Both the position numbers and the translations under genes were made by a program. From assembly GCA_003990765.1 (NCBI GenBank), contig RBNJ01000058.1, forward strand, positions 1-45,815: a stretch of 45,815 nt of DNA, in the 5' to 3' direction. Positions 8,289-38,976 of the stretch are shown here, piece by piece. A model generated the notes under the pieces. The model was not told where the DNA came from, ran no database searches, and saw nothing but the letters and a program-made list of their open reading frames with translations. Source of the DNA: Jimgerdemannia flammicorona (lineage: Eukaryota). Positions within the stretch are counted from its first letter, which is position 1; every line of letters begins with the position of its first letter.

Positions 8289-8651
8289 GAGAAGTAAAAT
8301 ATGATGACTGCCTATAAGGTTCTAGTCCATGAATCATAACAGCATGTCCTGTAACCAGCAGACTATCTGTCTGGATCATTCTCTAAGAGATATAGCATCA
8401 GCAACTACTCATCCATGAGACTTTGAAGCCAGAGAAGTTTGAACCATCAACTGATTGGACAAGATCAGAATTAGGCTCTTGCTTTATATAAAGGGAGTGA
8501 CCCTTCACCATTACACCAAAATATATAGGGAAGATACTAGTCCATAAATACTACTTTTTAACCCCTTGCCGGAGGTTATGGGATCAGCAAATTTTTCAGG
8601 ACTGGACCAATGAATAAGGATATTCAAGAAGATCCTTATTCAGGAGGAAGA

Positions 8652-9517
8652 TATAACAGTAACCTCAGAATGATGACATCAGTACAAGAGACAGTCTTTC
8701 CTTGTAAGTCACTAGATTGAAGCATAAGAAGATTATATAACATGACTCACTCAGGCTATAAGATGAGCAATGATGACCAACTGTAAGTCATTGTGACCAC
8801 AGTATAGGCATCTTAAGGAATATAAAAGAAGAATCAAGGAACCACAGTAGCAGAAACTCAATAAGACCCACTAATTCCAAAATAGCTCAAAGACTTACTA
8901 TAAATGAAATGCCTGCTGCTCACCAAACCTCAAGGTCAAGGAATCATCAAGGTACTTTAGTCAAAGAAAGGATATTCTAAGACATCAGAAGAGCCATAAG
9001 GACTCATATAAGAAGGACTCCTAGCCTCAACCTGAGTACTGGGGATCCTTATCACTTTATCCTCTACTACTGTGAAATAGAAATAAGGATCACTATTACT
9101 ACCAAATATCTCCAAATATGACAGAAGTATAAAATAAGAAACTTTCTCTACCAGGAGTTTCCACAGACCAGCCCTCAAGAGTTACAAGATACCACTCCCA
9201 TGGATATATGTGAAACAAGGATAACTAAGAAGATTCATCAGATCTTCAGATATATATCATAGTTAATCCCCAACTTGGAGTATGTTAGAGTTTCAGACTT
9301 CAGAGATCTGTCAGCCTACCATATCAATATACTAAAAGCCAGGGTGGCTACAGAAGTCCAGTTCACTATTACTCTCAATAGTGATAAAGTAGAAGACTTC
9401 TGGCATCCCATTCTTCAGGACAACCTAGATCAATTCCTGCAAGAATTGATCTCAGTATTCTAAGGCCCAAGTATCTAGGTTAGACCTCTCTAAGACCCCA
9501 CATTTGTTTCCTATTTT
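8652..9517 (+). repeat. 3' LTR family A copy 1, left part
   Basis: Follows the PPT and is colinear with 1556-2399. Confidence 0.9.
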
Positions 9518-9548
9518 CAACACAACTTGGAGAAAAGATATTATAGAA

Positions 9549-11569: not shown

Positions 11570-11600
11570 AGGATGGGATTGATATATAACACTATTTCTT

Positions 11601-14600
11601 ATGAACAGTATAACCAACATTTTCTCTTTGAATGTGAATGGGTTAAGGGGATCTGGGTAGTGTAAGAACATTTTTACTTGGCTCAGGGGATTGAAGGCTG
11701 ATCTTTTTTTACTACAGGATGTATGGTGTGAGAATGAGGATAATTGAGTGGAGTAGACTAGGGAATGGGGTGGAGTTACTGTTTGGTTTGGCAAAGTAGC
11801 AATTCTGGTAAGGAAGGGTAGAGGAGACTTGGGGGGAATCAAGAGCTAGGGTAATCACTTGGTCTGGGGAGATTGGTATCAGCCAGGGTGGGAGTCAGTG
11901 AGGGTTGACTCTTGTTACTGCTCAGCAGTCAGGAGCGAGAGGACTGCATAGATTAAGGAGCTGCTGGAGGAGGGTATTCTCTTGGAGGAAGGGGTTGATG
12001 TTCTCAGTGGGGACTTTAATATGGTTCAGGATTAGCATCTAGATAGATCTGATGGAGAGAGAAATGCAGAGGAGAGAAGTGGCAGTCTAGATACATGAGA
12101 GGAGGTGAAGTATCTGAGCTCCTTAGGAGATATGGGCAGAATATAGTGGGGCAACACTAGGGTCTACACACATTGGGGGAATGGCTTGGGTACAAGGATT
12201 GACTGAATTCTGACAGCTGAGTGTTGGGGTGCAGATGTTTAGAAGACATTAGAGGTGAAATAGTGCCTGTGGTCTGATCACTGGAGACTATTAGGGCAGG
12301 GGTAGTTTGGGGGAAGTAGAGATGGACCTGGACATTGGTGCCTTAACTCCTCCCTACTGGCTGAGAAGGGGTTGTGGGACTTATGGGTGGAGAATATTCA
12401 GGCAAAGGTTTCTATCTAGAGGTAAGAGGGTTTGTCTGTGGGTGTCCATTGGATGAGATTGAAAGAGACTGTGAGGGCCTATTGGGGAGGAGCTGGTAGA
12501 GAAGCTGGGAGACAGAGGAGGAAGTGCACAAGGTGTGCTTCCAATAGGCTGAGGAGACTGCAGATAGATTGGGCAGATTTGCTTACTTCTGATGGGGTAG
12601 AGGATAGAGAGGGTGAAATTGGAAGTGATAGAACTGCAACAGGTGTTGAGAGTAAAGGAGGAGACTCATATATGAGGAATGGCTGCCAGGCTATAGTGGC
12701 AGGGGCTTGAGGAGAGTGAGCAGCCTACTAGGTACTTATCAAGACTCCTCAAAGCTAGGAGGGTGTGACATCAGTGGGATGGGGTCTTCGATGCAGAGGG
12801 GGATATGGTGTATGATATATAATAAATCTTAGGAGTTTTGAAGGAGAGATGGCAGAGTCTATGGAGTGAGGAAGAAGGGGGTGCAATTGAAGATACTCTA
12901 GAGGAGTGGGAGATGCCACAAGTAGCAGGACTGGGTGACTTGATCTTACCAGTACAAGGGGAGGAGATTCAGAGTGTCCTTGTAGCAACTAAGCTTGGGA
13001 TGGCCCTGGGGGAGGATGGGTTATCTTGGGACTTCTGGAAGAAGATAGTAAAGATCTCTGGAGTTTTGGGTGAGATGGCTGCTCTTTGTGACCATGTTCT
13101 TCTGAATGGTGAGTGGGTTGGAGAGCAGGACCTTGGGTTGGTGGCCTTATTGTACAAAGACAAAGAGAGGAGGGAAGACTGGAAGAATTGGAGACTGATC
13201 ATGCTTCTGGATATGGACAGGAAGATAGTGACTAAGGTGATTGTAGTGAGGCTGCAGAAAGTTACCCAACAGGTGCTGGGGGAGAAGCAGCAGGGCTTTG
13301 TTGGAGGCAGACTTATAAGGGATGGAACTGCATGGGTACATGGTATCATTGAAGGGGCCTGTGCTTGTGGACTGGATAGAAGGTTGGTTTTTTTGGACCA
13401 GGAGAAGGCCTATGACTGTGTACAGTAGGTTTGGCTGGGCAAGGTGTTGGATTGAATTAATGTTCCCTCATGATTTTGAGCTTCTATGTTGAATTTGTTA
13501 GAGAGCAGTCAGGTGGCACTAGTGTATAATAGTCACCAAGGGCTGGCATTCTCCTTGGGAAGAGAAGTTCCTCAGGGGGACCCTCTGTCCTCTATTCTCT
13601 ATGCCCTTTCATTAGAATCTTTGATAGATAGGATTCACTAGAAGGTGGCAGAGCTCTCTATATATGGTATAGTGTGGAAGATGGGGGTCTTTGCTGACAA
13701 TATGGTGGTTGGACTTGGGTCTGTGGTAGATGTTGAGGCACTTAAGGAGACAGTGGAATAGTATGAGACACACTCTGGGGTAAAGCTCAACTGACATAAG
13801 TGTGAGACAATAGTGCTAGAGAATAGGCTAGTGGATGGAGATGTCATTGGAACAATTGTCCCTACTAGTGAGATGGTGCGGTATCTGGGCATCTTCCTTT
13901 CTGTATATAGATCTGTCTTGTCATAAGTATGGTGGGAGAGCAGGGTGACCATTTGGGGGGAGGCTCTTAGAGGTTGGGGGGGGCCACTATATCTCTCTGG
14001 CAGGGTGGGTGTTGATTCTGAATGTCTACTGGTTCTCCAAGCTGTAGTATGTAGCCTATTACTTAGACTTCCCAGCTTGAGTGGTAAAGAGGCTAACAAA
14101 GGTGGCTAGAGATTGGATTTGGGCAGAGAGGAGGTCCCAGATCAGTTGGGATACTCTTGCAATACTGGTGGTTAGGGGAGGTCTTGGCCTTGTGGATTTC
14201 CCTAAGAGGTTATACTGCCTGTGAGCCTGGTGGTTGATGAGAGCTACTGAACTGCAGGGAGGGGGTTGGGTACCACTGCTGCAGAAGGTATGGGAGATGA
14301 GACCTCCCCTCAAGGGTCCTTGGGAGATCTGCTCTCTTTGGTAGGGCTGAATGGAATTCAATAGCTATAGTTTAAGGGCTTTTGGTGGGGGGTGATAGAT
14401 GGAGCACACCAAATTGGCCTATGCTGGTGAGGTAATGAGAGGGAGGTAATATGGGGTCCAGATATATGGTGATGGGATAGACTGCTCCTAGGGGATGCTT
14501 TGCTTGCTGAGTTTGATATTGGAGATAGAGTGGAGTGTCAGCAGGGTCTTGGCCAGAATCTTTGGCCAAGTGGCTGGCAGATGGCAGGGATCAGTGAGGA

Positions 14601-15146
14601 GTGGGACTGAGCAAGTATCTGATCATAGAGTGCTGAGGTATGGAGGTGGCTTCCTCCCAAGTTCTGAGTGGTATGGTGGAGGATTCTGCAGAGGAATGTT
14701 ATGCTGAACTTCCACACTAGACATCTGGTAGAAGGTGGACATTTCAATTGTGAGGAGTGTTATAATGTGGGGCAAGCTGGGGGATTTGTACAGATGCCAG
14801 AACATTGGCTGGGAGAGTATGAGGTTTTGAGGGACTTTTGGATAGAAGTAGAGAATAGACTGGGTGTAGAATAAAGACCAGCAGGTGTGGGAGGCTGTTG
14901 GGAGGATTTGAGATCTCAGCTAGTGGGTGGTGTAGGTGATAGTTGGCTCACTATAGGGTGGGTGTTAGTAGTGTAGGTGAGACTGGCTGGTCATTGGCTC
15001 TTTGTATTCAAGGAGGGGTCATAGATAGGGCTATAGAAGAAGGTATTATAGTGGGAGGAGTTGTTGGGAGATCTGCTGACTGGATGGTGGGTGGGTTGGG
15101 GTCCTCAGGGGGGGTGATATCATGGTCTGGTAAAAAGGATCTGTGA
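11601..15146 (+). pseudogene. LINE ORF2 (AP endonuclease + reverse transcriptase + C-terminal Cys-rich)
   Basis: MNSITNIFSLNVNGLR, FLLQD, GDFN, RID and SDH (APE); NWRLIMLLDMDRKI, QQGFVGGRLIRD, FLDQEKAYD, QGDPLS and FADN (RT); CEEC..PEH C-terminal motif. Confidence 0.9.
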
Positions 15147-15305
15147 ACAGAGTGGTAGGAGAGTAGAGATAGTATTAGACAAAGTGGCCTTTTGGCGAGT
15201 AGGGATAGGAGAGGAGAACCCCTCTAAAGGGATCAGATAGGGGGTGGGTTCAATGTATTTATCATATGAGATAGATGGGCAATAAAGAAAGGAAGTCTAA
15301 GTGAC

Positions 15306-15335
<30 letters not shown>

Positions 15336-15339
<4 letters not shown>

Positions 15340-15908
15340 AGACAGATGAAACATTCATGGACCTCATCTCCTTCAGTAATGATGAGGATGAAGCCCCCAT
15401 AGTTCTGAATATTCTACTCTAAGTCCCTTAGTTATACTGAATTATACTAGCATCCTTTTCCTGTATAACAGCTATTCTTCCACTAGTATTCTGACCTTAT
15501 ATAATTTAGAATTATTCTAGCACTATTTTTCTATATCACCAAAATTATACCAGCATCCTGAACCTATATAACCACCTGTGCTGACTCTGGAACTTAGCAG
15601 TTTTCTGTATTTCAGTATTTTTATTTGATTATTATAATTTATATTTAGCTTTATATCTTAGCAACTATTGAATTATATTTTATATAAATACTCTTCTTAT
15701 TTCCTCTAAAATAAAGTCAGTCAAGTTCACTTACACACAATCTCTTACAAGCAATCTAAAGAGATAATAAAACAGTTTAAAAATAAGAAGTTTGAGGACT
15801 ATAAGACTTGAGAAGATACTCCAATAAGAACTTACTTATAACAAACTTGAGTTAGTCTAAGAGATATATCTTGACATATTTGAAGGATTCAGTGACTACT
15901 ATATGATA
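15336..15908 (+). repeat. 3' LTR family A copy 1, right part
   Basis: Colinear with 2520-3104; ends ...TATGATA (from ...TGTGACA). Confidence 0.88.
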
Positions 15909-16235
15909 ATGTTTATAAAAAAAATTAATAAAAAAATTTGAAACTCTATAACTTTAGAAAAACCTAATATATTTTAAAAATTGTTTCATACTTTTATTTA
16001 AATTAAATATTAGAATATTAAGCTTTAGTGATTTAATATTGATTACTTTATATTATATATTGAATTGAATCAAATTTAACTTTAATTTAATTTAATTTAA
16101 ATTTTTATTAATGAGATATACTAATTTAGCAATAATTTTTTTTTTGAAATTTATATAAATATCTTTTTTTTAAGAATTGGCAATCCTTTGGTCTTCTTAG
16201 CAATTATATATATTCTATAGCTTATATATATATAT

Positions 16236-16810
16236 TATAATAGTTAATCTAAATTAGAAACAAAAAATATTTAATTATCTAAATATAATTTTCAAATTTA
16301 ATATAGTATATAGTTAGTAGTTATCTAATTTATATAATATAAAAAAATATTTTACTTATATAGAAAACTTATATAAAATAAGTCATATATATGTATAACT
16401 TAGCTACTATATAGTATAAATACTTTAGTTTTAGAATAAATAATTCTTAAATTAAAATAGTTTAAAAGTAAAGAGACAAAAGAACTAGTATATAAGCCTA
16501 TAGATAGATATATTTCAATTTTATTCATCTTTATATCTAAAGGACTCTGAGAAGTTAAAAAAGATTAAGTATTTAAGATAAAGAAATCTACTATATTTTT
16601 TTGATTATATGACTACTATGTTATAACTTAATATTTATTAGCTAATAATTTAAGATATATAAATCTCTTACTTTTAAGCTAAATAATAAATAACTGCTTT
16701 TATTTCACTCAGACTGATCTAAGATATCTAAATAAGATAAATATAAAATCACTAGTATTTTATAAATATATCTTTGATAAATTAATTATTACCTTTTTTG
16801 AAATTTTAAG
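16236..16810 (+). mobile_element. Fossil family B LTR (16236-16625) + PBS + gag start, extremely AT-converted
   Basis: Aligns with the family B LTR, PBS and gag leader, differing almost only by C>T/G>A. PBS ACTTAATATTTATTAGCTAATAATTT at 16626-16651. Confidence 0.8.
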
Positions 16811-17497
16811 TAATATTATAATAGTTCTAGTTTCTTTAAGAAAAAGTAACTAAATCTGAAAAATTCTAGTAGATCTAAAGTAGCTCAAAGAGATACTTAT
16901 AAATTTAAGTAGTCTTAAAGAATTTCTAAAGAAAAATAAGTTGAGCTTTATTGAGTAAAAAAAAAGAATATTTATAAATCTAAAAAAAAGATATAAAAGA
17001 ATCTTAAAAATAAATAAAAAATCTAAAAAAAAAAATTTCTCAGTAAAGATGACTAATAGAATTTTATAATATTATAAAGAGTTCTAAGTAATAGTTAAAA
17101 CTATAATAATGGTTTGTTATTTTTAATATATAATTATATTATAGCTTAAATATAAATTTTATTAAATTCAAATTTTAATTATTAATAATATAGTATTTAA
17201 ACTTTTGAATAATAATTTTATTTTATTTTATTTAGATAATTATACATAGATATTAATATAATTATTTTAAGTTATATTACTATTATTATAGTTTTGACCC
17301 TCACAAGTATCTAAATCTATTTGAATTTATAGTATACTATTAGATTAAGCTATAATTATCTTTACTATATATTGTTTTTAGATATTCTTTACTACTCTAT
17401 AGTGTTTTTGCTCTCAATTTTAAGCAATAAAAAGGTTTTTTATTAATATTTATAACTGTGATATAGTGAGATAGTAAAAGGGGTTTTTGCTTAATAT

Positions 17498-17986
17498 TAT
17501 AACATAGTAGATGTATAACTATATAAGTATATCAGATTTCTATATCTTGAAAACTTAATCTTCTTTGACTCTGCAGAGTCCTTGAGATGTAGAGATAAGT
17601 GAGTTTGAAGTATATCTACCCATAGACTTATTAGTTCCTTTACTTTTTCTTTACTTTGAACTATTTCAATCTGAGATTTATTTACTCTAGATACTAATAT
17701 ATTTAGATACTAGTATATTTATAAGTTTACTAGCTATAAGATGGCTAAGTTATAACTATATTTTCTATAAGTTATTTTTTATAAGTATAGATCCTCTATA
17801 TCTATAAAATCTCTATAATCATAAAGATTTTATATCTGTAGAATTTCTATATTTATAAAGTTTCTATATTTGTGAAAATATGGCTGCTCTTTATAAGACT
17901 ATACTATATTTGGGAATTAGGTTCAGATACTGTAATCAAATGTCTATTCTTCTGATTCATGTTCCTAATTCAGATCAACTATCATA
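17498..17986 (-). repeat. 3' LTR of family B copy 17498-30932
   Basis: Direct repeat of 30469-30932. Confidence 0.9.
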
Positions 17987-18261
17987 ATTTCCTCCTAAAT
18001 AGATGATTTATCCCTAAAACATTCTATTCACTTGAACTTCTAAGTCTCTACAAGCTGTATCTCCTTATACTGTATAATCTGTATCATCATATTCTTCTAA
18101 TAATATCTTCTGACTTATATAAAGTCTCCTGGAACTACTTTCTGAAAATGAGCTAGAGCTGGCTCATCCTTCTTAAATAACTTATATACTTATTTTACAA
18201 TAGTAATCTGAGTATAAGAGAGCTGGTACTCTCTGATCCAATCTTCTTTTCCCATCTCTAG

Positions 18262-18719
18262 TGTGATGGTACAGTCAAATTTGGAAGAAGAAAATAGGGA
18301 ATAGACACTTGATCGCACCCATTCCCAAAGTAGTATAGCCTTATAGTTAGCAGTCCTCGATTTTGACATTGTCTAAATTCTTAGACATTATCCAAATCGA
18401 ATACCCCAATTTAGTATAGCATTTAGATATTGTCCAAATGTTTCGATAAAGTCCAAATGACTCATTTATTACTTAGTCACCCTCTCATAGCTAGCAAACT
18501 TGTATAAATAACCCAGTATCTTCAAGTGAATAAACCTCAGATCAAAATAGTTCAAAGTAAAGAGATAGCAAAGAAACTAGTAAGCCTGTGGGTAGATATA
18601 CTTCAAACTCACCCACCCTCCCCTACAACTTCAAGAGACTCTGCGAGAGTCAGAACAGTCAAGTTTTCAAGATACAGAAATCTGACATACTTTCAAGAGT
18701 AAGCATCTGCTACATTACA
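18262..18719 (+). repeat. 5' LTR family B (458 bp)
   Basis: TGTGATGG..ATTACA; TATAAATA at 18503 and AATAAA at 18529; matches 24500-24957. Confidence 0.95.
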
Positions 18720-18839
18720 ACTTGGTGCCCATTGGCTGGTGATTCAAGACAAATCCCTCACTTTCAAGCTGAACAATGAACAACTACCACTATCCAAACA
18801 ACCATACAAACTGAGCCCCAATACCCAGACAAGATAGAT

Positions 18840-21800
18840 ATAAGACTGCCAGTATTCCATGGATATACCTCAGATAAATCAATCATCACCTTCATTGATG
18901 ATTTCGAGCAGTATACTGCTGTAAGGACTCTGACAGCAGCACAGCAAGTAGCCCTCATGCCCTTCAGTCTATGAGGCCCTGCTAGAGCAGCATTCACAGC
19001 TGCAACCCATGCAGGAAATGATGCAGATGCCATACTGACAGCACAGAAGACCTGGCTCCAAAATACATATTACACAGATGAGATCAAGCAAGCCCTAAAG
19101 GATTAGCTCAATACAATATGCCAAGGAATGAGTGAGGATCCAAACACATTCTATACCAGAATTCGATATCAGATAATCCTTGCAGATTATGCTGCTGCTA
19201 TCCGAGATCAAGTAGCTGAAACAACCTTCATAAAAGGAGTCCATCCAGAAATAGCCATGGCCATCCGCTCATCACCAGTGATTCTAGATCTGCCACAGAA
19301 GGTCACCTATGCTCAGCGATACTGGATAGCCAGACACCCATAAGACCATACAATGGAGAGAGTTACAGGAGTCAGAATTGAGGCACCCAAGGCAACCAGT
19401 GTGATCCCCACCACAATGATCAATTAAAACACACCTCAGCCAAAAGCTACAGAGCAGCAAAAGAACAGTGACCCTATAGAGGAACTCACCAAAAGGTTTG
19501 CTGAAATGACTGCCCACCTGGGAGATGTGGTAAAGGAAATCTGAGGAAGAGATCGCCACCCTGTTCAGAAGTTCGCCACCACCTCAGACAAGAAGAAAGG
19601 TACCTGCTACAGCTGCAGAGAAGAAGGCCACTACTCCTATGAATGTATGAGTGAAACTAAATGCAAGGCTCAACCAAGCAATGCCACACGAAACAAGGAG
19701 CAGGCCAATACAATCACCTTTGAAGAAATCAGAGAATCCGATGAAGAGAAATGGGAGGCCTATCCTGCTCAGACCACCAAGAAGGATGCTCGCAAAGAAC
19801 CCTACAAGAGACTGCCAGGAAGACCCAAGAAGAACCCAGTGGAAAAGCAGATGGAAACTGACACAGAAAGCCAAGCTGAAGAGATGGACCAAGATATCGA
19901 GCTGAAGCAAGCAGTTCAAGATATCATCCGAGGAACCACTCCAGCCAGTGAAGGAGAAAAAGAAAAGAAGCTTTGCAAGACCAAGACCTTCAAGTATGAT
20001 ATCTTCAAGGATCTCAGTCAATAAAAGGTCAATGCAACCTTTGGTCAGCTTGCAGAAATCCCAACATTCAGATAGCAAATGAGGTTTGGACTTGCCAAAA
20101 CAACCAAGGAACAAGGATGGAAGATAACTGAGGCCAATAATATTCAAGAGGACTCAGGAGAAGAAAGTGAGGACAATTGCAAAACCTCTGCTTACACAAC
20201 ATACCAAATCGAAGATAGAATCTTTGAAGCCATCATTGATACGGGAGCAGGAGGATGTCTCCTTAGTAAAAAGGCAGCAGACCACCTAGGTTGGGATGTA
20301 GAAGAAGCAACTAAGCTAGTATTCATCACAGCTGATGGCACAAGAGCTACACCTCTGGGAAAGATCTGAGATGTTCTCATCAAGATCGGAGGAGCAACAA
20401 TCCCAGTAGATGTAATCATAACCAATGCTACCAACTATGACATCCTCATCAGCAATCAATGGCTTCACAAAGCCAAGGCGGTAATCGATCTCAATGCTCA
20501 GAAGATGCAGATCACCTACTGGGGACAGAAGATACAAATTCCCATCAATGTCAACAAAGGAGTCCTGCCTGATATGGAGGAAGAAGAGAGTGAGCAAGAG
20601 GAAGCTTATATGGTGACTATTCCAAAGAAGAAGAAAGTCAGATGGATGAGTGAAGAAGAATGGTGCAAGAAGATCGCAGAAAGTTATGCCCCACAAGGAG
20701 TCTGTCCCCATGGAATCAAGATGTACTGTATGGAGCATGTCAATGATTGCTACCAGTGTACCATCAGAACCAAGAAGATCTACCAGGAAAGAAGGCAGAA
20801 AGCTCTCAAAAAACAGATCAGAGAAGAAGAGAAGGAGGAAGATGATGAACCACCAGCCCTCCTGAAGGACAGTGATGATGAAGAAGAAATCAAGGTCAAG
20901 ATTCGAAAGATCCACTCTGATGCAGTCTTGCCAGAATACAAGTCAGAAAATGCAGCCAGAATGGACATTGCTACAGTAGAAGAAACTGTACTGGAACCCC
21001 AGACAACCACCCTACTCACAACTGGACTGGAGATGACCATCCCAAAGAATCATGTCGGGATTCTCAAGACAAGAAGCAGCCTGGCTAGAAGTGAAATCAC
21101 AATTGAAGGAGGAGTCATTGATTCAAACTATACTGGAGAAATTCTACTCATTGCTAGGAACCACAATCCTACAATTCCATTCCCAGTCAAGAAGAAGGAC
21201 CAATTGGCACAGATGTTGATCTTCTCAATCATACAGCCAAGGATCATAGAAGTCAAGAATCTGGAGGAAATGAAAAGAGGAAAGAAAGGATTCAGATCCA
21301 CAGGAAGAGGAGTATTCGCCAGCACCAAGATCACCGTACTTGAGCATAAGAAGGAGGAAAACACAAGCAAGCACAGTTACACCATTGGAGATGAATTCCC
21401 ACTCAAGGAGGAACTCAAGAAAATACTTCACAAATTCAAGGATGTCCTTGTCACGGATTTCAAGGATATCAAGGGAAAGACCCCACACTACTATCATGAG
21501 GTAGATACCGGAGACACTGAACCAATTTATCAGAAGGCAAGACCTGTCCTGCCAGCCTACCGAGAATGGCTCAGAGAAGAAATCAAGCAGATGGAAGAAG
21601 CCGGCATCATCAAAGAAGTCAGTAGCCCCTGGTCTTTACCAGTTGTACTAGCTCTGAAAAAAGGAAGCAAACCTGGAGAATTTGCCCCAAGGCTCTGTGT
21701 CGACTACAGAAAGCTCAATGCAGTTACCAAGAAGAATCGCCAACCACTGCTGCTCATCAGTGACATCCTTATAATACTGGGAGATGAAGCAGAGTACTAC

Positions 21801-22826
21801 AGCATCTTGGACTTATACTCAGAATTTCATCAAATTGGACTCACAGAGATGGCAAGTGAAAATTCAGCCTTCATCACCCCAGATGGATCCTACATCTACC
21901 TATGAATGCCATTCGGAATGTGCAATGCACCAGCAAGCTTTCAGTGAATGATGAACAAAATCTTCCACCATGACATGGGAAGATGGATGATGGTCTATGT
22001 CGACAATATAATCATCTATAGCAAGACACCTGAGGAACATCTGCAGTACATACAGCAGATAATAGAGAGACTAAGACAATATGGCCTTTATATCAAACCC
22101 AAGAAGTGTAAGTTTGCAGAAATCAAGATCTCCTATCTTGGCCATATTATCAATCGAGATGGAACACACATAGACCCCCTCAAAATACAAGCAGTAGCAG
22201 CATACCCAAGGCCCACTACTGTCACAGAAGCCCAAGCCTTCATGGGACTTGCCTTCTACTATCGCAGATTCATTAGAGGATTCTCCAACATCACAGGTCC
22301 AATCTATGAACTCAACAAGAAGGATACCAAGTTCCAGTGAACTAGCAGACAACAAAAAGCATTTGACAAACTCAAGACCAGACTAACTCAGGCACCCATC
22401 CTCAGACAACCCAATTGGACCCAAGAATTTATCCTTCAGATGGATGCAAGTGCACAGAGACTAGAAGCAGTCCTAGCTCAAAAAGAAGACAAAAAAGAGT
22501 ATGTCATTGCATATCTTAGCCGTGGAACCCAAGGGGCTGAAAAAGAATACAAGTTCTACAAGTTGGAATGCCTTGCAGTCATCTGGGCTGTGGAAAAGTT
22601 CCACTACTATCTGGCCAGAAGACACTTCACCATCCAGATGGACCACTCAGCTCTCACCTGGCTACTGACAACTGGACAACCCAAGGGAATCTATGCCAGA
22701 TAGATAATGAAGTTACAAGCCTATAATGTAACCATCGTACACTGCCCTGGAAGAACAAATTCCAATGCAGATGCTCTCTCACGGATACCTCGAACTACCT
22801 TCAACCAACAAATCAATCATGAATAA
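18840..22826 (+). pseudogene. gag-pol: gag-pol frame: capsid, CCHC knuckle, protease, Cys/His module, dUTPase, RT, RNase H
   Basis: ORFs 19128, 19647, 20079, 20505, 21948 and 22440 share one frame. Motifs: CYSCREEGHYSYEC, AIIDTGAG, RLCVDYRKLN, YVDN, FILQMDAS, DHSAL, NADALSR. Confidence 0.93.
20895..21305 (+). pseudogene. dut: Trimeric dUTPase domain between protease and RT
   Basis: AARMD (motif 1), KTRSSL (motif 2), GGVIDSNYTGE (motif 3), LAQML (motif 4), RGKKGFRSTG (motif 5). Confidence 0.93.
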
Positions 22827-24011
22827 GGAGCTCTACTATGGAATTATCACATACCTGGGACAGCGAAAGATGCCCCAACATCTGGAAGAATGGACACAAA
22901 CAATTATCAACAGGACATGGAAATAATTCGAAACTGATGGAGAAATACTGAAGAAGGGAAAACTACTGGTTATACCAGAACACAAGAAGGAGCAAGCGAC
23001 GAAATCAGTATATGAACTTGGCCATCTAGGAGGAATGAATACATATGACAAGGCAAGAAGAACAATATGGTGGCCAGAGATGGAGGAAGATATCAGACAA
23101 TTTGTCAAGACATGCGACAAATGCCAGAAACAGAAACAAGACCAATGGAATCAAGCCCCAGGATCAGCACACATAGAACCAGTACCATTTGCCCATATAG
23201 CAATGGATGTAATCAGCCCTCTACCCTTGACCCTGACTGGTAACCGATACATCATTGTCATTGTAGACCTTTTACGAAGTGGATTGAAGCAGGACCCCTC
23301 AAGGAAGCCAATGCACAGTCAATTGCCGATTTCTTCCACAAGGAAATCATCTGCCGGTTCAAGACCCCAACACAAGTAACTACAGATAGAGGAACAGAAT
23401 TCGTGAACCAGCTCTTTGAGGTTCTCTACAAGAAGTACAAGATCCAGCACATTCGAACCACAGCCTATCACCCCCAAGAAAATGGACAAGTAGAAAGGAC
23501 TAACAAAATCCTCAAGAATGTTATCACCAAGATCTGTGATAACTACGAGAACTGGGATCACTATCTGCCAATAGCATTATCTGCTCTCCAGGATATCCAA
23601 TCACAAAGCACCCACTTTACCCCTTGAGAAATGCTGTTTGGAGAAGAATGTTCTCAAGGAATCCTATCATCCAATAGAGATGCTGTATGGAAACATATGG
23701 ACATGGAAATACAGAGACTATACTAAATCAGAAAGAAGGCTGAGGATTACATAACCAAGGTGCAGACACTACAATGGAGGAATGCAGAAAAGACCCACAA
23801 GCCCTTGGAGATTATCAAGATAGGAGACAAAGTTCTAGTGTATCAGAATATGATAGAAGCTTTATGGTCATGAAAACTGGAGCCCAAGTGGGAAGGACCT
23901 TACCTTGTACAAGATATAAAAGGGACCACCTTTTGGCTACGAAAACTCTCAGGCACAATAATCCCCACCACCATTTACCGAAACTGACTCAAGAAATATC
24001 ATGGCCAGTAA
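22819..24011 (+). pseudogene. Integrase ORF (HHCC, DDE, GPY/F; no chromodomain), starting in the +1 frame
   Basis: MNKELYYG..GHLGG..CDKC; IAMDVI, TDRGTEF, QENGQVERTN, LEPKWEGPY; one private frameshift near 23272. Confidence 0.9.
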
Positions 24012-24462
24012 CAAAAGTACTGTGATGGCACTCAAGATCACTAGTGCTGCCCAAAGAGCCATCGAAAGACAATGGCACACCACCGAGCCTCTGACCATAG
24101 AGGCATACTATGAGGATATTCAGAGTATTGTGTAGACTCATCTCTCTCAGATCTCACACTTTAGAGCCTATCAGTATCAGGCAGAATTCCAAGAATACTT
24201 CAAGCTTGGGCAGGTGCTCAATCAGGATCCAGAAAAGACCAAGAAGGACTGGATTGCCGAGTGTCAACTCTCTCACTCACAGATCACTATTGCCAAAAGG
24301 ATCCACAAGTTATTCCAAGAAGATGAACCAGCAATAGACTATCTGAGAGAAGTAACCCCCACTGACTTTGAGAAAGTGAAGAGACACTATTGGGAAACAG
24401 TCATACAGCAAATTGCACAGTACAAGACCATACAGACAGTTGAAGCCTGGGAGTTTGAATAG
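24001..24462 (+). pseudogene. Accessory ORF3, 153 aa, unknown function (one internal TAG)
   Basis: MASNKSTVMALKITS..EYFKLGQ..AKRIHKLF..KRHYWE..QIAQYK..VEAWEFE; an equal-length homologous ORF lies at 33581-33120. Confidence 0.82.
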
Positions 24463-24499
24463 ATGCCCCAGGGATGAGACCATCTATTCAGGAGGAAGT

Positions 24500-24957
24500 T
24501 GTAACAGTACAGCCAAATTTGGAAGAAGGAAATAGGGAATAGACACTTGATTGCACCCATTCCCAAAGTAGTATAGCCTTATAGTTAGTAGTCCTTGATT
24601 TCGACATTGTCTAAATTCTTAGACATTATCCAAATTGAACACTCCGATTTAGTATAGCATTTAGACATTGTCCAAATGTTTCGACAAAGTCCAAATGACT
24701 CATTTATTACTTAGCCACTCTCTCATAGCTAGCAAACTTGTATAAATAACCCAGTATCTTCGAGTGAATAAACCTCAGATCGAAATAGTTCAAAGCAAAG
24801 AGATAGCAAAGGAACTAGTAAGCCTGCAGGCAAATACACTTCGAACTCACCCACCCTCCTCTACAACTTCAAGAGACTCTGTGAGAGTCAGAACAGTTAA
24901 GTTTTCAAGATACAGAAATCCAACGTACTTTCAAGAGTAAGCATCCACTACATTACA
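24500..24957 (+). repeat. 3' LTR family B (458 bp)
   Basis: TGTAACAG..ATTACA followed by the CTAG TSD. Confidence 0.95.
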
Positions 24958-25183
24958 CTAGCTATAAATTAAGTAGCTGTTCTAACTTGAAGTATTCTTG
25001 AAGCTTAGTCCAATTTTGGTAGGTCTTAAAGTGTGAAATTCATAACAGTTATATCTGTACTATACTTTGGATACTATTGAAGGATTTCTCTATTATGGGT
25101 AGTTTGATAGTACACCATTGTCTTTCTATGACTCATTATATAGTACTAGTGATCTTAAGAACTGTGGCCATACTTTGTTGACT

Positions 25184-28100
25184 AGTAATGATACTTCTTA
25201 AGTTGATTTTGGTAAATGGTAGTAAGGATAATTGTACCTGAGAGTTTTTGTAACCAAAAGGTGATTCCTTTTATATCTTGAATAAAGTAAGATCCTTTCT
25301 ACTTAGACTCTAGTTTTTGTGACTATGAAGCTTCTATATATTCTAATATATTAGGACTTTGTCTCCTATCTTAACAATCTCCAAAGGCTTATGAGTCTTT
25401 TTTGTATTATTCTGCTATAGTGTCAATACTTTGGTTATATAATCCTCAACCTTCTTTCTGATTTGGTATAGTCTCCATATCTCTGTATCCATATATTTTT
25501 ATATAGTATCTCTATTAGATAATAAGATTTCTTGAGAACTTTTTTTTCCAAACAGCATCTCTTAAGAGGTAAAATGAGTACTTTGTGATTGAATATCCTG
25601 AAGAGTAGATAATGCTATTGGCAGATAGTAATTTCAGTTTTATAGTTATAATAGATCTTAGTGATGACATTCTTGAGAGTCTTGTTTGTTCTTTCTACTT
25701 GTCTATTTTCCTGAAAGTAATAGACTGTAGTTTAAATATGCTGGATCTTGTACTTCTTATAGAGAACCTTAAAGAACTAGTTCACAAATTCTATTCCTCT
25801 GTCTATAGTTACTTACAATGAGATCTTGAATTAGCAGATAATTTCTTTGTAGAAAAAATCAGTAATTGACTATATATTGGCTTTCTTGAGGGATCCTGTC
25901 TCTATCTATTTTGTAAAAAGGTCTATAATGATAATGATGTATCAGTTACTAGTCAAAGTCAAGGGTAGAGGGCCAATTATATCTATTGCAATGTGTGCAA
26001 AGAGTACTGATTCTATGTATACTAATCCTGGGGTCTGATTTCATTGATCTTATTTCTGTTTCTGGAATTTATTACAGGTTATGACAAATTGTCTGATATC
26101 TTCCTCCATTTTTGGCCACTACATTGTTTTTCTTGCTTTATTATATATATTTGTTCCTCCTAGATGACTAAGTTTATATACTGATTTCATTGTTTGCTCC
26201 TTCTTAATTTAGATATAACTAGTAGCTTTCCTTTCTTTAGTATTTCTATATCAGTCTCAAATTGTTTCCATATTCTATTGATAATCATTTGTATTCATTC
26301 TTCCAGATATTGGAGCATCTTTTACTGTCTCAGGTAGATAATAATTTTATAGTAGAGTTTCTTATTCATGGTTGATTTACTAGTTGAGAGTCCTTCAGAG
26401 TATCTATGAGAGGGCATCTATATTGATATTAGTTCTTCCAAGATAGTACATGATGGTTATGTCATAAGCTTGCAACTTTATAATCTATCTGATGTAGATT
26501 TCTTTGGGTTGTCTAGTGGTCAATAGTTAAATAAGAGTGGAGTAGTCTGTCTGGATAATAAAGTATCTTTCTGTGAGATAGTAGTATAACTTCTCTATAG
26601 CTCAGATAACTGCAAGACATTCTAACTTATAGGATTCATACTCTTTTTCAGCTTCTTGAGTTTCTTAGCTGAGATATATAATAATATATTCTACTTTGTC
26701 TTTCTTTTAAACCAGGATGACTTCTAGTTCTTGGATACTTATATCTGTCTGCAGGATGAATTCTTGAGTCCTATTGGGTCTTCTAAGAATGAGTGCTTGA
26801 GTCAGCCTGATCTTGAGCTTATCAAATGCTTTCTGTTATCTGCTGGTCTATTGAAACTTAATATCCTTTTTGTTGTATTTGTAGATTGGGCTTACAATAT
26901 TAGAGAATCCTTTGATAAACCTATAGTAATATAAGGCAAGTTCCATGAAGACTTGAGCTTCAGTGACAGTAGTGGGCCTTGGATCTGCTACTGCTTAAAT
27001 CTTAATTAGATCTATATATATTCTATCTTAGTTAATAATGTGACTAAGGTAGGAGATTTTGATTTCTATAAACTTGCACTTCTTGAGCTTGATGTAAAGA
27101 CCATGTCTTCTTAGCTTCTCCATCATCTGCTGGATATATTGCAGATATTCTTTGGCTGTCCTACTATAGATAATAATATCATTCACATAAACTATCATTC
27201 ATCTTCTCATATCATAGTGAAAGATTTTGTTTATCATTTGCTAAAAGCTTACTAGTATATTATATATTCCAAATAATATTCATAGATAGATATAGGTTCT
27301 GTCTGGAATAATGAAGGCTGATTTTTTTACTTACTGCTTTAGTAAAGTCAATTTAGTAGAATCCTGAGTATAAATCCAAGATACTATAGTACTGTACTTC
27401 ATCTCCCTAAGTTATAAAGATACCCCTGATAAGGGGCAGTAGTTGGCAATTCTTTTTTGTCATCAGGTTGAGTTTCCTGTAATCAGTACAGAGCCTTGAG
27501 ACAAATTTTTCTAATTTATTTCCTTTTTTTGAGACCAATACAACTGGTGAAACCCAAGGACTACTAGCTTCTTTGATGATACTAGCTTCTTCTATCTACT
27601 TGATTTCTTCTCTGAGCCATTTGCAATAAGCTGATAGAATTGACCTTGCTTTTTGATAGATTGGTTTAGTATCTTCTATATCTATATAATAATAGTAGTG
27701 TGGAATCTTTTTCTTGATATTCTTGAAGTTTGTAGCTAAGATATTCTTAAATTTATAGAATATCTTCTTGAGTTTCTTCTTGAGTGAGAATTTATTTCTG
27801 ATAGTGTAGCTATGCTTATTTGTAGTTTTCTCCTTCTTATGATCAAGTTCTATAATCTTAATACTAGTGAATACTTCTCTTCTAGTAGATCTGAATTTTT
27901 TTTTTTTTCTTTCTATTTCCTTCAACTTCTTGACTTTTATGATCTTTGACTGAAGAACTGGAAAGATCAATATCTATATTAATTAGTTCTTCTTGATTGA
28001 AAATGGGATTGTGAGATTATAGTTTCTAACAATAAGTAGTATTTCTCTAATATAGTCTGAATCAATAACTTCTCCTTCAATAGTAATCTCACTCTTGGCC

Positions 28101-30468: not shown

Positions 30469-30932
30469 TATAATATAGTAGATATATAACTGTGTAAGTA
30501 TATCAGATTTCTATATCTTGAAAACTTGATCTTCTTTAACTCTGCAGAGTCCTCAGGATATAGAGATGGGTGAGTTCAAAGTATATCTACCTGTAGACTT
30601 ACTAGTTTCTTTACTTTGAACTATTTCAATCTGAGGTTTATTTACTCTAGATACTGGGATATTTATATAAGTTTGCTAACTGTAAGATAGCTAAGTTATA
30701 ACTATATTTCTTATGAGTTATTTTCTACAAGTATAGATCCTCTATATCTCTCAAATCTCTATAATTATAAAGATTCTATATCTGTAGAATTTCTATATTT
30801 GTAAAGTTTCTATATTTGTGAAAATATGACTACTCTTTATAAGACTATACTATATTTGAGAATTGGGTTTAGGTACTATAATCAAATGTCTATTCTTCTG
30901 ATTTATATTCCTAACTCAGATCAACTGTTACA
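30469..30932 (-). repeat. 5' LTR of family B copy 17498-30932
   Basis: Preceded on the plus strand by the PBS complement; ends ..GTTACA followed by ATAT. Confidence 0.9.
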
Positions 30933-32162: not shown

Positions 32163-33119
32163 CTAGCAAAAAAACCACTTTTGCTATCTCACTATATTAT
32201 AGTTATAAATATTAATAGAAAGATTTTTTTATTACTTGAAATTGAGAGCAAAACACTATAGAGTAGTAAAGAATATCTGAAACAATATTATAGTGAAGTT
32301 TGATAATTATAGCTTAACTCAATAGTATATTATAAATTTAAATAGATTTAGATACTAGTGAGGATCAAAATGATAATAATGATAATATAACTTAAAATAG
32401 TTATATTAACATCCATAATTATCTAAATAAAATAAAAAATTTAAATTTAATAGAATTTATATTTGAGTTATAATATAATTATATATTAAAAATAATAAAA
32501 CATTATTCCAGTTTTAGCTATTATTTATGACTAGTTAAGATAAGATACTTAGTGTTGAGAAAAGATAAAAATATTCTAGTAAAATCTTAATACTGTAACA
32601 TAGCAGACACTTATTCTTGAAAGTACATCGGATTTCTATATCTTGAGAACTTGACTGTTCTGACTCTTGCAGAGTTCTTTGAGTTGTAGGTGAGGGTGGG
32701 TGAGTTCGAAGTATATCTGCCCACAGACTTATCAGTTCCTTTGCTATCTCTTTGCTTTGAACTATTTCAATCTGAGGCTTTATTCACTCTAAGATACTAG
32801 GTTATTTATACAAGTTTGCTAGCTATGAGATGGCTAAGTTATAACTATATTTTCTATAAGTCATTTCTTTTACAAGTGTTAAATCCTTGACATCTATTAA
32901 ATCTTTAACAATCATTGAAGAGTTTAATATCTGTGAATAGTTTAACATTCATGAAAACTTTAATATTTGTGAAATGACTACTATCTGGGCTATACTATAT
33001 TTGGGAATCAGATTCAGGTACCATGATCAAATGTCTTATTCCCCTGATTTATGTTACTAATTTAGATCAACTGTCACAACTTCCTCTTGAATAGGTGATT
33101 CATCTCTGAAACATCCTAT

Positions 33120-33581
33120 TTACTCAAACTCCCATGCCTCTACAATTTGTATCTCCTTGTACTGTGCAATTTGTGTCATTATGTTCTCCCAATAATGTCT
33201 TTTGATATATCCAAAATCTCCTGGGACTACTCCTTAAAAGTGGGCTAAGGCTGATTCATCATCTTTGAACAACTTGTTAATTCATTTGGCAATTATGATC
33301 TGAGTATAGGAAAGCTGGCACTCTCTAATCTAGTCTTCTTTTCCCATCTCTGGCTGTGAATTCAGTAGTTGTCCCAGTTTGAAGTATTCCTGAAACTCAG
33401 TTCAGTTCTGGTAGATCTTGAAGTGTGAAATTTGTGACAGGTGTGTTTGGACTATGCTCTGGATACTGTCAAAGGATTCCTCTATAGTAGGTAGTTTAGT
33501 TGTACACCATTGTCTTTTTATGGCTCGCTGTGTGGCACTAGTGATCTTGAGAGCTAAGGCAGTACCCCTTTGGTTAGTCAT
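33120..33581 (-). pseudogene. Accessory ORF3 homologue (153 codons)
   Basis: MTNQRGTALALKITS..EYFKLGQLL..KRHYWE..QIAQYKEIQIVEAWEFE, with transition-derived stops. Confidence 0.8.
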
Positions 33582-38371: not shown

Positions 38372-38976
38372 ATCCATCTTGTCTGGGTATTGGGACTCAG
38401 TTTGTATGGTTGTTCAGGTAGTAGCAGTTGTTTGTTGTTCAGCTTGAAAGTGAGGGATTTATCTTGAATCACCAGCTAATGGGCACTAAGTTATAATATA
38501 GTAGATACTTACTCTTGAAAGTATGTTGGATTTCTATATCTTGAGAACTTAACTGTTCTGACTCTTGCAGAGTCCTTTGAGTTGCAGGTGAGAGTGGATG
38601 AGTTCAAAGTGTATCTGCCCACAGGCTTACTAGTTCCTTTGCTATCTCTTTGTTTTGAACTATTTCGATCTGAGGCTTTATTCACTCTAAAATACTAGGT
38701 TATTTATACAAGTTTGCTAGCTATGAGATGGCTAAGTTATAACTATGTTTTCTATGAGTCATTTCTTTCATAAGTATTAAATCCTTAATATCTATTAAAT
38801 CTTTGACAATCATTGAAGAGTTTAATATCTATGAATAGTTTAACATTTATGAAAACTTTAATGTTTGTGAAATGACTGCTATCTGGGCTATACTATATTT
38901 GGGAATCAGATTCAGGTACTATGATCAAATGTCTTATTCTTCTGATTTATATTACTAATTCAGATCAACCATCACA

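Follow-up and report, generated by a model that had tools for sequence, protein, structure and literature searches.

A putative accessory gene between integrase and the polypurine tract of a decayed Ty3/gypsy element in Jimgerdemannia flammicorona

Element copies and ORF3 in the window

The window, that is, the whole stretch of 45,815 nt that was analyzed (Jimgerdemannia flammicorona, contig RBNJ01000058.1), harbors two copies (A and B) of a Ty3/gypsy element and three copies (A, B and C) of a further open reading frame, ORF3, downstream of integrase (IN).

18262–24957, plus strand: copy A, Ty3/gypsy element; LTRs at 18262–18719 and 24500–24957, 92.9% alike
32596–38977, minus strand: copy B, the same element; LTRs at 32596–33079 and 38494–38977, 91.9% alike
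22819–22826, plus strand: RH/IN overlap of copy A, ATGAATAA, holding the ATG at which IN starts and the TAA that ends pol
24000–24011, plus strand: IN/ORF3 overlap of copy A, CAT GGC CAG TAA in the IN frame
24001–24462, plus strand: ORF3 of copy A, 153 codons plus a TAG stop; pseudogene
33120–33581, minus strand: ORF3 of copy B, 462 nt with four in-frame stops
24958–25189, minus strand: N-terminal part of ORF3 copy C, with ATT replacing ATG and five in-frame stops
18028–18257, minus strand: C-terminal part of ORF3 copy C, with four in-frame stops and the true stop

Copy A displays the structural features of Ty3/gypsy elements (Metaviridae), namely LTRs, a target duplication, a PBS and a polypurine tract (PPT). 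Its LTRs run from TGT to ACA, the 4-bp duplication CTAG flanks it at 18258–18261 and 24958–24961, a PBS-like TGGTGCCCATTGGCTGG lies 3' of the 5' LTR, and the PPT, AGGAGGAAG, occupies 24490–24498. The gag-pol-IN region of this copy is disrupted by stops and frameshifts; copy B retains a 478-codon open piece (35279–36715) that covers the dUTPase and the start of RT.

ORF3 remains here only as three decayed copies, all of them pseudogenes. No ORF3 in the window is open, the in-frame stops numbering one in copy A, four in copy B and nine in copy C, and these stops stem from the C-to-T decay by which gag, pol and IN were disrupted as well. The initial annotation had described a conserved ORF3 of 462 nt. 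The length, stop included, is borne out in copies A and B, and the blocks EYFKLGQ, KRHYWE, QIAQYK and VEAWEFE are found in both, but the stops in A, B and C had been overlooked. Copy A is broken by an in-frame TAG at 24133–24135, where 8 of 11 other sequences have Gln, and shares 77% identity with the intact 153-residue relative P0003. The third copy had been described as split by a nested insertion, and that insertion proves to be copy A with its CTAG duplication: the N-terminal part of copy C stops at the CTAG target site, the C-terminal part resumes directly on the other side of copy A, and deletion of copy A together with one CTAG duplicate (25189–24958 joined to 18257–18028) yields 462 nt. 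This reassembled frame has lost its ATG (ATT) and carries nine in-frame stops in total.

Relatives of ORF3 and the element L001

A near-complete metagenome element, L001, has the order gag-PR-dUTPase-RT-RH, IN, ORF3. Its gag (CCHC), PR, dUTPase, RT and RNase H form a single ORF of 1258 codons, in which Pfam places zf-CCHC at 183–199, an aspartyl protease at 395–484, dUTPase at 625–752, RVT_1 at 869–1034 and RT_RNaseH at 1097–1225. Integrase_H2C2 (Pfam, 7.4e-20) falls in the next ORF, so that the domains follow the Ty3/gypsy order PR-RT-RNase H-IN. The IN ORF is shifted to the +1 frame and opens with an ATG 5 nt ahead of the pol stop. A further +1 step leads from IN to ORF3, whose ATG falls within the last IN codons, and a polypurine run, AGGAGGAAG, follows ORF3 just before the 3' LTR begins. 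The tricistronic arrangement proposed earlier (gag-pol / IN / ORF3) is present in L001 at the level of ORF layout only.

No chromodomain family was matched at E <= 1 (Pfam) by the C-terminal piece of L001 IN or by ORF3 (P0001, P0003 and P0016), and that IN piece gave only weak MLVIN_C and SH3_Tf2-1 matches at the same threshold. Its predicted domain content makes this a chromodomain-less, dUTPase-bearing Ty3/gypsy LTR retrotransposon. The nearest RT cluster in the ESM Atlas is basidiomycete on the strength of only four records.

Relatives of ORF3 itself comprise 8 of 10 candidates at E <= 0.01. Three of them (P0003, P0012 and P0016) are intact at 153 residues and align without any indel, and the 153-codon length is constant, again without indels, among sequences 59–77% identical. 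A second (beta) subfamily of 152–169 residues (11 of 38 candidates at E <= 0.01) forms clusters, the largest with 11 members, on contigs that reach 7980 nt; it is homologous to the first (hhalign 97%, E 1.2e-10), its start Met is aligned with that of the first at only ~20% identity, and an acidic-tryptophan C-terminal tail is common to both. The family is tiny. Only five matches at E <= 0.001 were obtained among 1.84 billion representatives, one of them probably spurious, so the ORF3 family may occur in a single host lineage only. The same 1.84 billion representatives contained no host-like homologue. A pattern scan of viral contigs matched 48 stretches, none of which was confirmed. Fragments 85–99% alike occur in the DNA contigs of all four sequencing runs analyzed, and two of the pieces listed cross the IN/ORF3 junction, with no joint visible; being DNA, they are mute on expression. 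Among the runs listed as carrying the element there was no RNA run.

Stop–start overlaps and the expression of ORF3

The ORF3 ATG of copy A (24001–24003; A at -3, G at +4) lies inside the sequence ...TAT CAT GGC CAG TAA that ends the IN frame (stop at 24009–24011); relative to IN, ORF3 is in the +1 frame. The IN frame of copy B ends ...TAT CAT GAC TAA, with CAT GAC TAA at 33582–33574 on the minus strand. The placement of the ORF3 ATG inside a CAT codon of IN, as first described, is borne out in both copies; in B and A the last base of the IN stop falls 8 to 11 nt beyond the A of the ORF3 AUG. At the RH/IN boundary of copy A the corresponding sequence is CAT GAA TAA (ATG 22819–22821, TAA 22824–22826), with IN in the +1 frame of RT-RH, and ATGAATAAG is invariant there in all five copies aligned, the more distant family D among them. 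The claim that the same CAT-G..TAA overlap joins both junctions therefore holds at RH/IN (5 of 5 copies) but not throughout at IN/ORF3: in L001 the IN frame extends 14 codons (44 nt) beyond the ORF3 ATG, so that the IN stop falls 2, 3 or 14 codons after this ATG, depending on the copy. Upstream, a stop closes the ORF3 frame 15 codons ahead of its ATG in L001 and A (two of three copies), and no ATG occurs within the 120 nt preceding the ORF3 start in two of three copies. No conserved RNA structure was detected around either junction (RNAalifold on four copies, few and decayed), the values for 201 nt being -12.8 and -18.2 kcal/mol, with hardly any covariation. A TURBS-like UGGGA upstream of ORF3 was given no weight, as it is part of the conserved PKWEGP codons of IN.

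Lying between IN and the PPT, ORF3 would be read from its own AUG in the +1 frame within the last IN codons, and its product would be a separate, low-abundance protein. Ribosomes that finish IN might reinitiate a few nucleotides back, or a spliced subgenomic RNA might place the ORF3 AUG first. The database ORF3 proteins are gene-caller output, and the claims on expression made here rest on sequence. That ORF3 is a separately initiated cistron is probable; that reinitiation is its route of expression is a serious candidate, somewhat short of likely.

Reinitiation after long ORFs relies on a stop and a start codon that are out of frame with each other and either overlap or are separated by no more than about 30 nt, and SART1 (UAAUG) is cited as a precedent among retrotransposons (PMC10275272, in part). 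Out-of-frame stop/AUG pairs that overlap or are at most ~30 nt apart occur at RH/IN in five of five copies and at IN/ORF3 in two of the three copies with an ATG. In this respect the junctions resemble calicivirus and influenza B TURBS, the polycistronic RNA of CaMV and SART1 UAAUG, where stop and AUG likewise overlap out of frame or are a few nucleotides apart (PMC10275272, in part). The counterparts here are AUGAAUAA at RH/IN and, in A and B, an AUG 6–9 nt before the IN stop; the invariance of AUGAAUAA suggests a reinitiation route at the RH/IN boundary. Unlike the TURBS systems, the four copies show no TURBS-like or downstream structure, and L001 has the 44-nt overlap. Its IN stop, 44 nt past the ORF3 AUG, argues against reinitiation, being beyond the viral fall-off at ~30 nt (PMC10275272, in part). 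A literature search at title and abstract level did not find termination–reinitiation in an LTR retrotransposon, which is not proof of absence.

Alternatively, ORF3 could be translated from a spliced subgenomic mRNA, as are retroviral env and accessory genes and Cer1 CERV, with the overlap at the IN stop reflecting compact packing that plays no part in translation. This is a less probable account, although several observations fit it. In LTR retrotransposons, ORF3s are typically translated from spliced mRNAs (PMC5408684, in part) and Cer1 CERV is encoded by a spliced mRNA (PMC10309623, in part); the position of the IN stop is not conserved; and a CAG|G lies ~58 nt upstream in three of five copies (L001, A and B; CAG|T in C, CAG|A in D), and in L001 and A no ATG intervenes before that of ORF3. 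However, this candidate acceptor is inside conserved IN coding sequence, which makes its conservation uninformative, and the invariant stop–start overlap at RH/IN (5 of 5) makes a separate spliced RNA for IN unlikely.

A third possibility, and an improbable one, is that +1 frameshifting adds ORF3 to IN as a C-terminal extension, a targeting module at the place of a chromodomain, IN being joined to RT-RH likewise at GAA-UAA. Both junctions do step to the +1 frame beside a stop codon, ORF3 sits where a chromodomain would be and none is present, and with gag-pol in a single ORF some device must set the level of IN. By contrast, the ORF3 frame has a stop 15 codons upstream of the ATG in two of three copies; the variable position of the IN stop (2, 3 or 14 codons past the ATG) means that the shift site is not fixed; shifting at the L001 IN stop would skip 14 conserved ORF3 residues; and the Met is aligned across two subfamilies that are ~20% identical. 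No fused form occurred among 8000 candidates (proteins of 290–2000 residues), which is weak evidence.

Selection on ORF3

Differences between copies fall in excess at third codon positions. Counts at the first, second and third positions are 38/29/87 for A versus B (87 of 154 substitutions at third positions), 34/32/88 for A versus L001 and 32/12/64 for B versus L001, an excess in all three pairs (chi-square p 3e-9 to 6e-9; about 6e-9 for A versus B). The pN/pS of ORF3 (0.17–0.26) is on par with that of gag (0.23–0.32), PR-dUTPase (0.17–0.29), RT-RH (0.21–0.29) and the IN C-terminus (0.16–0.40) of the same copies, and dN/dS in the other two frames of ORF3 is 0.9–2.2. The intact ORF3 of L001 is free of stops in its own frame; the other two plus-strand frames contain 8 and 9, the three antisense frames 5, 8 and 15. 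When its sequence was shuffled 20000 times, 153 stop-free codons arose only once. A comparison of dN/dS among copies had been named at the outset as the check for neutrality, and evolution proves not to be neutral. The proposal of an accessory ORF3 under selection is upheld by the third-position excess, by pN/pS of 0.17–0.26 and by three indel-free intact relatives, and ORF3 is almost certainly a real, selected gene.

That the ORF3 frame is fortuitous or a relic and does nothing for the element (an untranslated pre-PPT spacer or a captured host gene fragment) might be argued from the lack of any Pfam, PDB or fold match, the stops in every window copy and the absence of a recognizable ORF3 between IN and the PPT in family D, but is already contradicted by the strong third-position bias with pN/pS equal to that of pol, by 153 codons kept without an indel at 59–77% identity, by the existence of two homologous subfamilies, by the want of a host-like homologue among 1.84 billion representatives, by stops that match the C-to-T decay of gag, pol and IN, and by the closure of every frame on the opposite strand, which leaves no overlapping gene there.

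The predicted ORF3 protein

The ORF3 product is predicted to be a soluble, all-helical protein of 153 residues. It is hydrophilic (GRAVY about -0.6, pI 4.8–8.8), and in all four intact relatives the highest 19-residue Kyte-Doolittle mean is 0.19–0.71, with no hydrophobic span. The hydropathy of these relatives agrees with the earlier statement that neither a signal peptide nor a transmembrane segment is present, and sets ORF3 apart from env-type ORF3s of the errantivirus or Athila-like kind. The conserved motifs are EFQ, a core of R-x-[IVT]-[HYN]-x-L-F-[RK]-[DE]-...-A-L-x-H-[LI]-[KR]-G-[IV], and the acidic-Trp tail, VEAWEFE in the first subfamily and ELDEWD[LV] in the second.

No Pfam family matched ORF3 (P0001, P0003 and P0016) at E <= 1, which is in keeping with the view that it is not a known IN C-terminal domain; 16 members of the beta subfamily gave only noise in Pfam (for example, TBK1_ULD at 0.018). 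Profiles of both subfamilies returned only chance rows from the PDB (E 0.08 to 2), the ESM Atlas yielded only unnamed, unrelated clusters, and ORF3 showed no similarity to the gag-pol of the element itself. AlphaFold2 models reached a pLDDT of 50 from 10 sequences, rising to 64 when 18 were used. Foldseek found no match at E <= 0.001 in PDB or BFVD, and a wide VIA-align search peaked at Z 5.7 and scored 8 of 48161 chains at 5 or above, which is below the meaningful level for helical models; its rows for a sigma-F region (model residues 57–104) and FliG (60–113) are within noise for such models. Because the pLDDT is 64 at best, 'no known fold' is not firm. ORF3 would be an accessory gene specific to this lineage of elements, without a known fold.

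Residues 85–105 may be read as HTH-like in look; no HTH family in Pfam matched ORF3. A ParB-like HTH was also considered, but no tool backed it.

A divergent patch and a frame in a long LTR

23985–24700, plus strand: patch of divergence between copies A and B that takes in ORF3, the PPT and the initial ~200 nt of U3
9074–9457, plus strand: decayed frame of ~128 codons in the long LTR of the D/E family, a possible remote relative of ORF3
1956–2342 and 40822–41208: further copies of the D/E LTR frame

Within the patch, identity between A and B is 40–80% per 40-nt window (mostly 50–75%), as against 87–97% just upstream and mostly 80–95% in the remaining LTR. The patch can be read as a recombinant cassette with its 5' edge at the IN/ORF3 junction, and this pattern of divergence would be evidence of an accessory gene inherited as a recombining module.

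Family D has no recognizable ORF3 between IN and the PPT. The frame in the D/E LTR was matched at iE 0.0028 to 0.31 (hmmsearch, six-frame window) and at 56–57% probability by hhalign (E 1e-4), and MAFFT puts it in the ORF3 register; the beta profile gave a probability of only 2.8%. Its codon-position bias is weak (D3–E5 28/24/43, p 0.04; D5–E5 33/29/39, p 0.47). Given this weak bias and the 2.8% with the beta profile, the frame remains a lead only, possibly a remote ORF3 relative.

Discussion

The account that we favor, by a modest preponderance, is that ORF3 is an accessory gene with a separate product and a regulatory or adaptor role. Retroviruses keep env and accessory genes in the same place, between IN and the PPT, and retroviral accessory and envelope genes arose from the extra genes of LTR retrotransposons. 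We know of very few non-env extra genes with a known role. The ORF3 product would be neither an envelope, nor a capsid, nor an enzyme; it might be a regulatory or adaptor protein whose acidic-Trp tail binds a partner from the host or the element. This particular role, read from composition and a terminal motif, is doubtful.

Fungal Gypsy elements have been described with an additional ORF of unknown function and with dUTPase domains (Novikova et al. 2010, PMC2864245, in part). The present element is alike in its extra ORF of this kind and shares with PosPlaTy3-5 of Postia placenta a dUTPase between PR and RT (PMC2864245, in part). By contrast, those elements are chromodomain-bearing chromoviruses whereas no chromodomain was detected in this one, a comparison by description only (PMC2864245, in part). 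The non-env ORF3s of bdelloid rotifers likewise lie downstream of pol, in dUTPase lineages, as an exchangeable module (PMC5408684, in part), but they are GDSL esterases, DEDDy exonucleases, transmembrane or coiled-coil proteins, unlike the small, soluble, helical and matchless product predicted here (PMC5408684, in part). Compared by description, CERV of C. elegans Cer1 is, like ORF3, a novel non-env protein of an LTR retrotransposon beside gag and pol (PMC10309623, in part). CERV is regulatory, made from a spliced mRNA and engaged in nuclear export of genomic RNA (PMC10309623, in part); for ORF3, splicing or such a function would be conjectural.

ORF3 offers a clean orphan protein family that is under selection and of which intact natural sequences are available for expression. 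IN and ORF3 each start at an AUG that overlaps the preceding stop, which makes polycistronic translation testable in a eukaryotic LTR element; if reinitiation is true, Gag-Pol : IN : accessory ratios would be set without frameshifting or splicing. Such a polycistronic reinitiation strategy is known from caulimoviruses and caliciviruses; to our knowledge, it has not been reported for an LTR retrotransposon. If none of this holds, the locus contains one more lineage-specific ORF3 of unknown function among dead transposons.

A wider reading, offered as speculation and with little expectation that all its parts will hold together, is that ORF3 founds an unnamed accessory family of at least two deep subfamilies, carried as a cassette swapped exactly at the IN/ORF3 junction (A versus B); that the D/E copy moved across the PPT into U3 of a 1.55-kb LTR; that two successive reinitiations, from pol to IN and from IN to ORF3, would take place on one RNA; and that the tail would serve as a transactivator or host-factor adaptor. 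HIV nef and MMTV sag are accessory genes that lie in or over U3 of the 3' LTR. ORF3 also lies between pol and the 3' LTR, with no sequence relation to either, and its tentative D/E relative (hhalign 56–57%) lies wholly inside the 1.55-kb LTR.

Organization of the window

Repeat mapping resolved the 45.8-kb window into a nested pile of dead eukaryotic retroelements, with gag, pol and integrase (IN) of every copy broken by stops and frameshifts.

Retroelements in the window
18262–24957, plus strand: copy A; LTRs of 458 nt, 92.9% alike; target duplication CTAG
32596–38977, minus strand: copy B; LTRs of 484 nt, 91.9% alike
~30600 down to 24958, resuming at 18257, minus strand: copy C, halved by the insertion of A
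~1556–15910: copy D, more distant family, 1.55-kb LTRs
~40385 to window end: copy E, same distant family as D, 1.55-kb LTRs
1556–3110; 8652–9517 + 15336–15910; 40385–~41950: LTRs of the D/E family, ~1.55 kb, three times the length of those of A, B and C
9518–15335, plus strand: decayed LINE-like non-LTR element with a poly(A) tail, inserted into copy D's 3′ LTR

The LINE-like element carries RT motifs at 12826–13428 and a poly(A) run at ~15309–15337, and GC skew is unusually high (0.43–0.49) across its region (9518–15335). Copies C and B have short tandem repeats of 34–36 nt within or close to their LTRs (17795–17869, 30741–30825 and 32904–32973), and copy B is without ~240–300 nt of integrase region present in A, C and the metagenome relative L001 (opposite ~22860–23160 of A). 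A run of 76 T (45523–45598) is found close to the window end, and G+C is only 18% in 16001–18000.

ORF3 copies, relatives and selection

The initial annotation had placed the ORF3 ATG of copy A at 24001, within ...CAT GGC CAG TAA of the IN frame, with a counterpart junction (...CAT GAC TAA) in copy B, and both were confirmed; ORF3 is 462 nt long in A and B, and all four peptide blocks named there (EYFKLGQ, KRHYWE, QIAQYK and VEAWEFE) occur in both. The third copy, C, is indeed split by A: minus A and one CTAG, it aligns base for base with B, again over 462 nt. Missing from that account was that no ORF3 in the window is open: copy A has an in-frame TAG at codon 45 (24133–24135), copy B has four in-frame stops, and copy C has nine as well as a start changed from ATG to ATT.

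In a protein search, eight of ten candidates proved to be relatives at E ≤ 0.01, with 59–77% identity. Among these and their cluster members, P0003, P0012 and P0016 are intact and exactly 153 residues long, and an alignment of 12 ORF3 sequences contains no indels. P0016 is encoded on L001, a 6,479-nt metagenome contig holding a nearly complete element: gag (with a CCHC knuckle), protease, dUTPase, RT and RNase H share one 1258-codon ORF, followed in the +1 frame by IN (H2C2 zinc domain, 7e-20) and then by an intact ORF3. The polypurine run AGGAGGAAG lies at ~6282–6290, directly before the 3′ LTR start; beside the 5′ LTR of the contig the same run is clearly readable as the polypurine tract (PPT). 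L001 is not free of defects, its gag leader region containing one stop and IN a frameshift. Its positions 1–77 hold the end of a further ORF3 followed by a PPT and LTR, reflecting either a tandem element or an assembly wrapped round a multi-copy repeat. Gag and pol are read continuously as a single ORF with no frameshift, and the dUTPase between protease and RT matches PF00692 (8.7e-24 and 2.9e-28; window 35279–36715, minus strand, and L001 ORF 843–4619, residues 625–752).

The ORF3 frame of L001 is free of stops; the two remaining plus-strand frames contain 8 and 9, and those of the opposite strand 5, 8 and 15. Shuffling left the frame stop-free in only 1 of 20,000 cases. Differences at codon positions 1/2/3 number 38/29/87 between A and B, 34/32/88 between A and L001, and 32/12/64 between B and L001, a third-position excess with chi-square p of 3e-9 to 6e-9; ratios in the two alternative frames are 0.9–2.2. 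Region by region, pN/pS of ORF3 (0.17–0.26) is indistinguishable from that of gag (0.23–0.32), PR–dUTPase (0.17–0.29), RT–RH (0.21–0.29) and the IN C-terminus (0.16–0.40). Both the third-position excess and a pN/pS like that of gag and pol contradict neutral evolution, bearing out the selected accessory protein of the initial annotation. Comparison of these sequences indicates that ORF3 is a real, selected accessory gene, of which the window holds only pseudogene copies.

Properties of the ORF3 protein

Pfam contains no family for ORF3, a PDB sequence search gave no match, and no similarity to the gag–pol of its own element was detected; with fold searches equally empty, the known IN C-terminal domain considered initially was not recovered. 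The C-terminal piece of IN itself shows no chromodomain and only weak SH3-type matches in Pfam. Longer fused forms of ORF3 were absent from 8,000 candidates. An AlphaFold2 model is all-helical, with eight helices (best pLDDT only 64), and neither Foldseek against PDB and BFVD nor VIA-align over 48,161 chains (best Z 5.7) gave anything above noise. The protein is hydrophilic with no hydrophobic span, in line with the membrane segment reported absent at the outset; its pI is 5.7–8.8 in three members tested of the subfamily found in the window (alpha) and 4.8 in P0020, a member of a second, distant subfamily (beta). We read it as neither envelope nor capsid nor enzyme. The sequences and model point to a small, soluble, helical protein whose acidic-aromatic C-terminal peptide is strictly conserved. 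Such properties would suit a regulator or adaptor with a docking partner in the host or in the element itself, a role we regard as a long shot.

A wider family and a possible remote relative

Only five of 1.84 billion representative proteins matched the ORF3 profile at E ≤ 0.001. P0019 (455 aa, repetitive) was regarded as a spurious profile match; P0020, of 165 aa, is genuinely, if distantly, related (hhalign 95.9%, E 5e-9). With P0020 as query, 11 of 38 candidates, of 152–169 aa, were found at E ≤ 0.01. In this beta subfamily clusters have as many as 11 members and contigs reach 7,980 nt; it is homologous to alpha (hhalign 97%, E 1.2e-10). When the two subfamilies are aligned together, the initiator Met, an EFQ motif, R100, L104 and F105 are in register, and the C-terminus of each is an acidic-tryptophan tail (VEAWEFE in alpha, ELDEWD[LV] in beta).

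Applied to the six-frame window, the ORF3 profile also gave weak matches, with iE of 0.0028, 0.014 and 0.31, all at the same homologous position within the D/E LTRs:

1956–2342; 9074–9457; 40822–41208: decayed frame of ~128 codons in the D/E LTRs

This frame scores 56–57% (E 1e-4) in hhalign against the alpha or alpha + beta profile and 2.8% against beta alone; MAFFT aligns it in the same register as ORF3, and its codon-position bias is marginal. No recognizable ORF3 was found in the stretch of D that separates IN from the PPT (8290–8640). The LTR frame may be a remote relative of ORF3 and, if the relationship is real, the gene sits inside U3 in that lineage.

ORF3 as a probable recombining cassette

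Copies A and B are 84–93% identical over gag, pol and IN and 80–95% over most of the LTR. At ~23985–24700 identity is 40–80% per 40-nt window, mostly 50–75%, in a patch that takes in ORF3, the PPT and ~200 nt at the start of U3 (23985–24700 against 32860–33600). Within it B is still 74–82% like C and L001; the closest sequence to the copy A ORF3 is P0003, at 77%. Between A and B, pS is 0.86 at ORF3 against 0.19–0.35 elsewhere. The simplest reading of this mosaic would be that sublineages recombined, one of the breakpoints falling at the IN/ORF3 junction, and that two deep ORF3 alleles, each of 153 codons, were maintained.

Junctions and expression

At the RH/IN junction the pol stop and IN start overlap as ATGAATAA, and ATGAATAAG is invariant in all five aligned copies, including D (~70% identity). 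The CATG of the IN/ORF3 junction is shared by L001, A and B and absent from D; in C the start reads ATT. Of the CAT-G..TAA overlap initially described as shared, the AUG proved conserved but the position of the TAA did not: IN stops 14 codons beyond the His codon in L001, where the overlap is 44 nt, but only 3 beyond it in A and 2 in B. The AUG context comprises A at −3 and, in two of three copies, G at +4; the preceding 120 nt are free of other ATGs in two of three copies.

The conserved AUG, the Met common to beta, and a stop 15 codons ahead of the AUG in the ORF3 frame of L001 and A argue that ORF3 is probably a separately initiated cistron. Because this AUG lies ~5 kb into the element, the RNA would need a special route, namely reinitiation or splicing. 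Ribosomes terminating on IN might reinitiate at the ORF3 AUG, and RH/IN could work by the same logic, an explanation we favor only tentatively; it fits the rule given in PMC10275272 that reinitiating stop–start pairs are out of frame and overlapping or within ~30 nt, and SART1 is cited there as a retrotransposon precedent. Slightly less likely is translation from a spliced subgenomic RNA, spliced messages being described as usual for retroelement ORF3s (PMC5408684) and CERV of Cer1 being made from spliced RNA (PMC10309623). An extension of IN by +1 frameshifting is improbable, the same three features that suggest separate initiation standing against it. No conserved RNA structure was found flanking either junction, and the DNA contigs of the sequencing runs compared with this region showed no joints.

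Genes of this kind are known, since PMC2864245 records dUTPase domains, as well as additional ORFs with no assigned function, in fungal Gypsy elements, and PMC5408684 diverse non-env ORF3s in rotifer elements. New are the ORF3 protein family itself, unnamed and of no known fold, the layout of gag–pol, IN and ORF3 joined by stop–start overlaps, and the cassette-like inheritance of ORF3. Among the titles and abstract openings listed by literature searches, none described stop–start coupling in an LTR retrotransposon.

Decay of the window copies

Given a coding-type substitution pattern and intact relatives, the stops in the window represent post-insertion decay. Private changes of copy C are C>T or G>A in 217 of 267 cases, 127 of these 217 at CpA, and those of copy B in 44 of 65, with 26 at CpA; decay of C, and also of B, bears a RIP-like signature. 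Fragments 85–99% alike to 23300–24980 were present in all four sequencing runs examined (three soil-metagenome runs from one study and one labelled 'organism A'). Relative to the window, T>C and A>G are their commonest single changes, but C>T and G>A are nearly as frequent, so that decay of this window copy by C>T/G>A change is only weakly supported.
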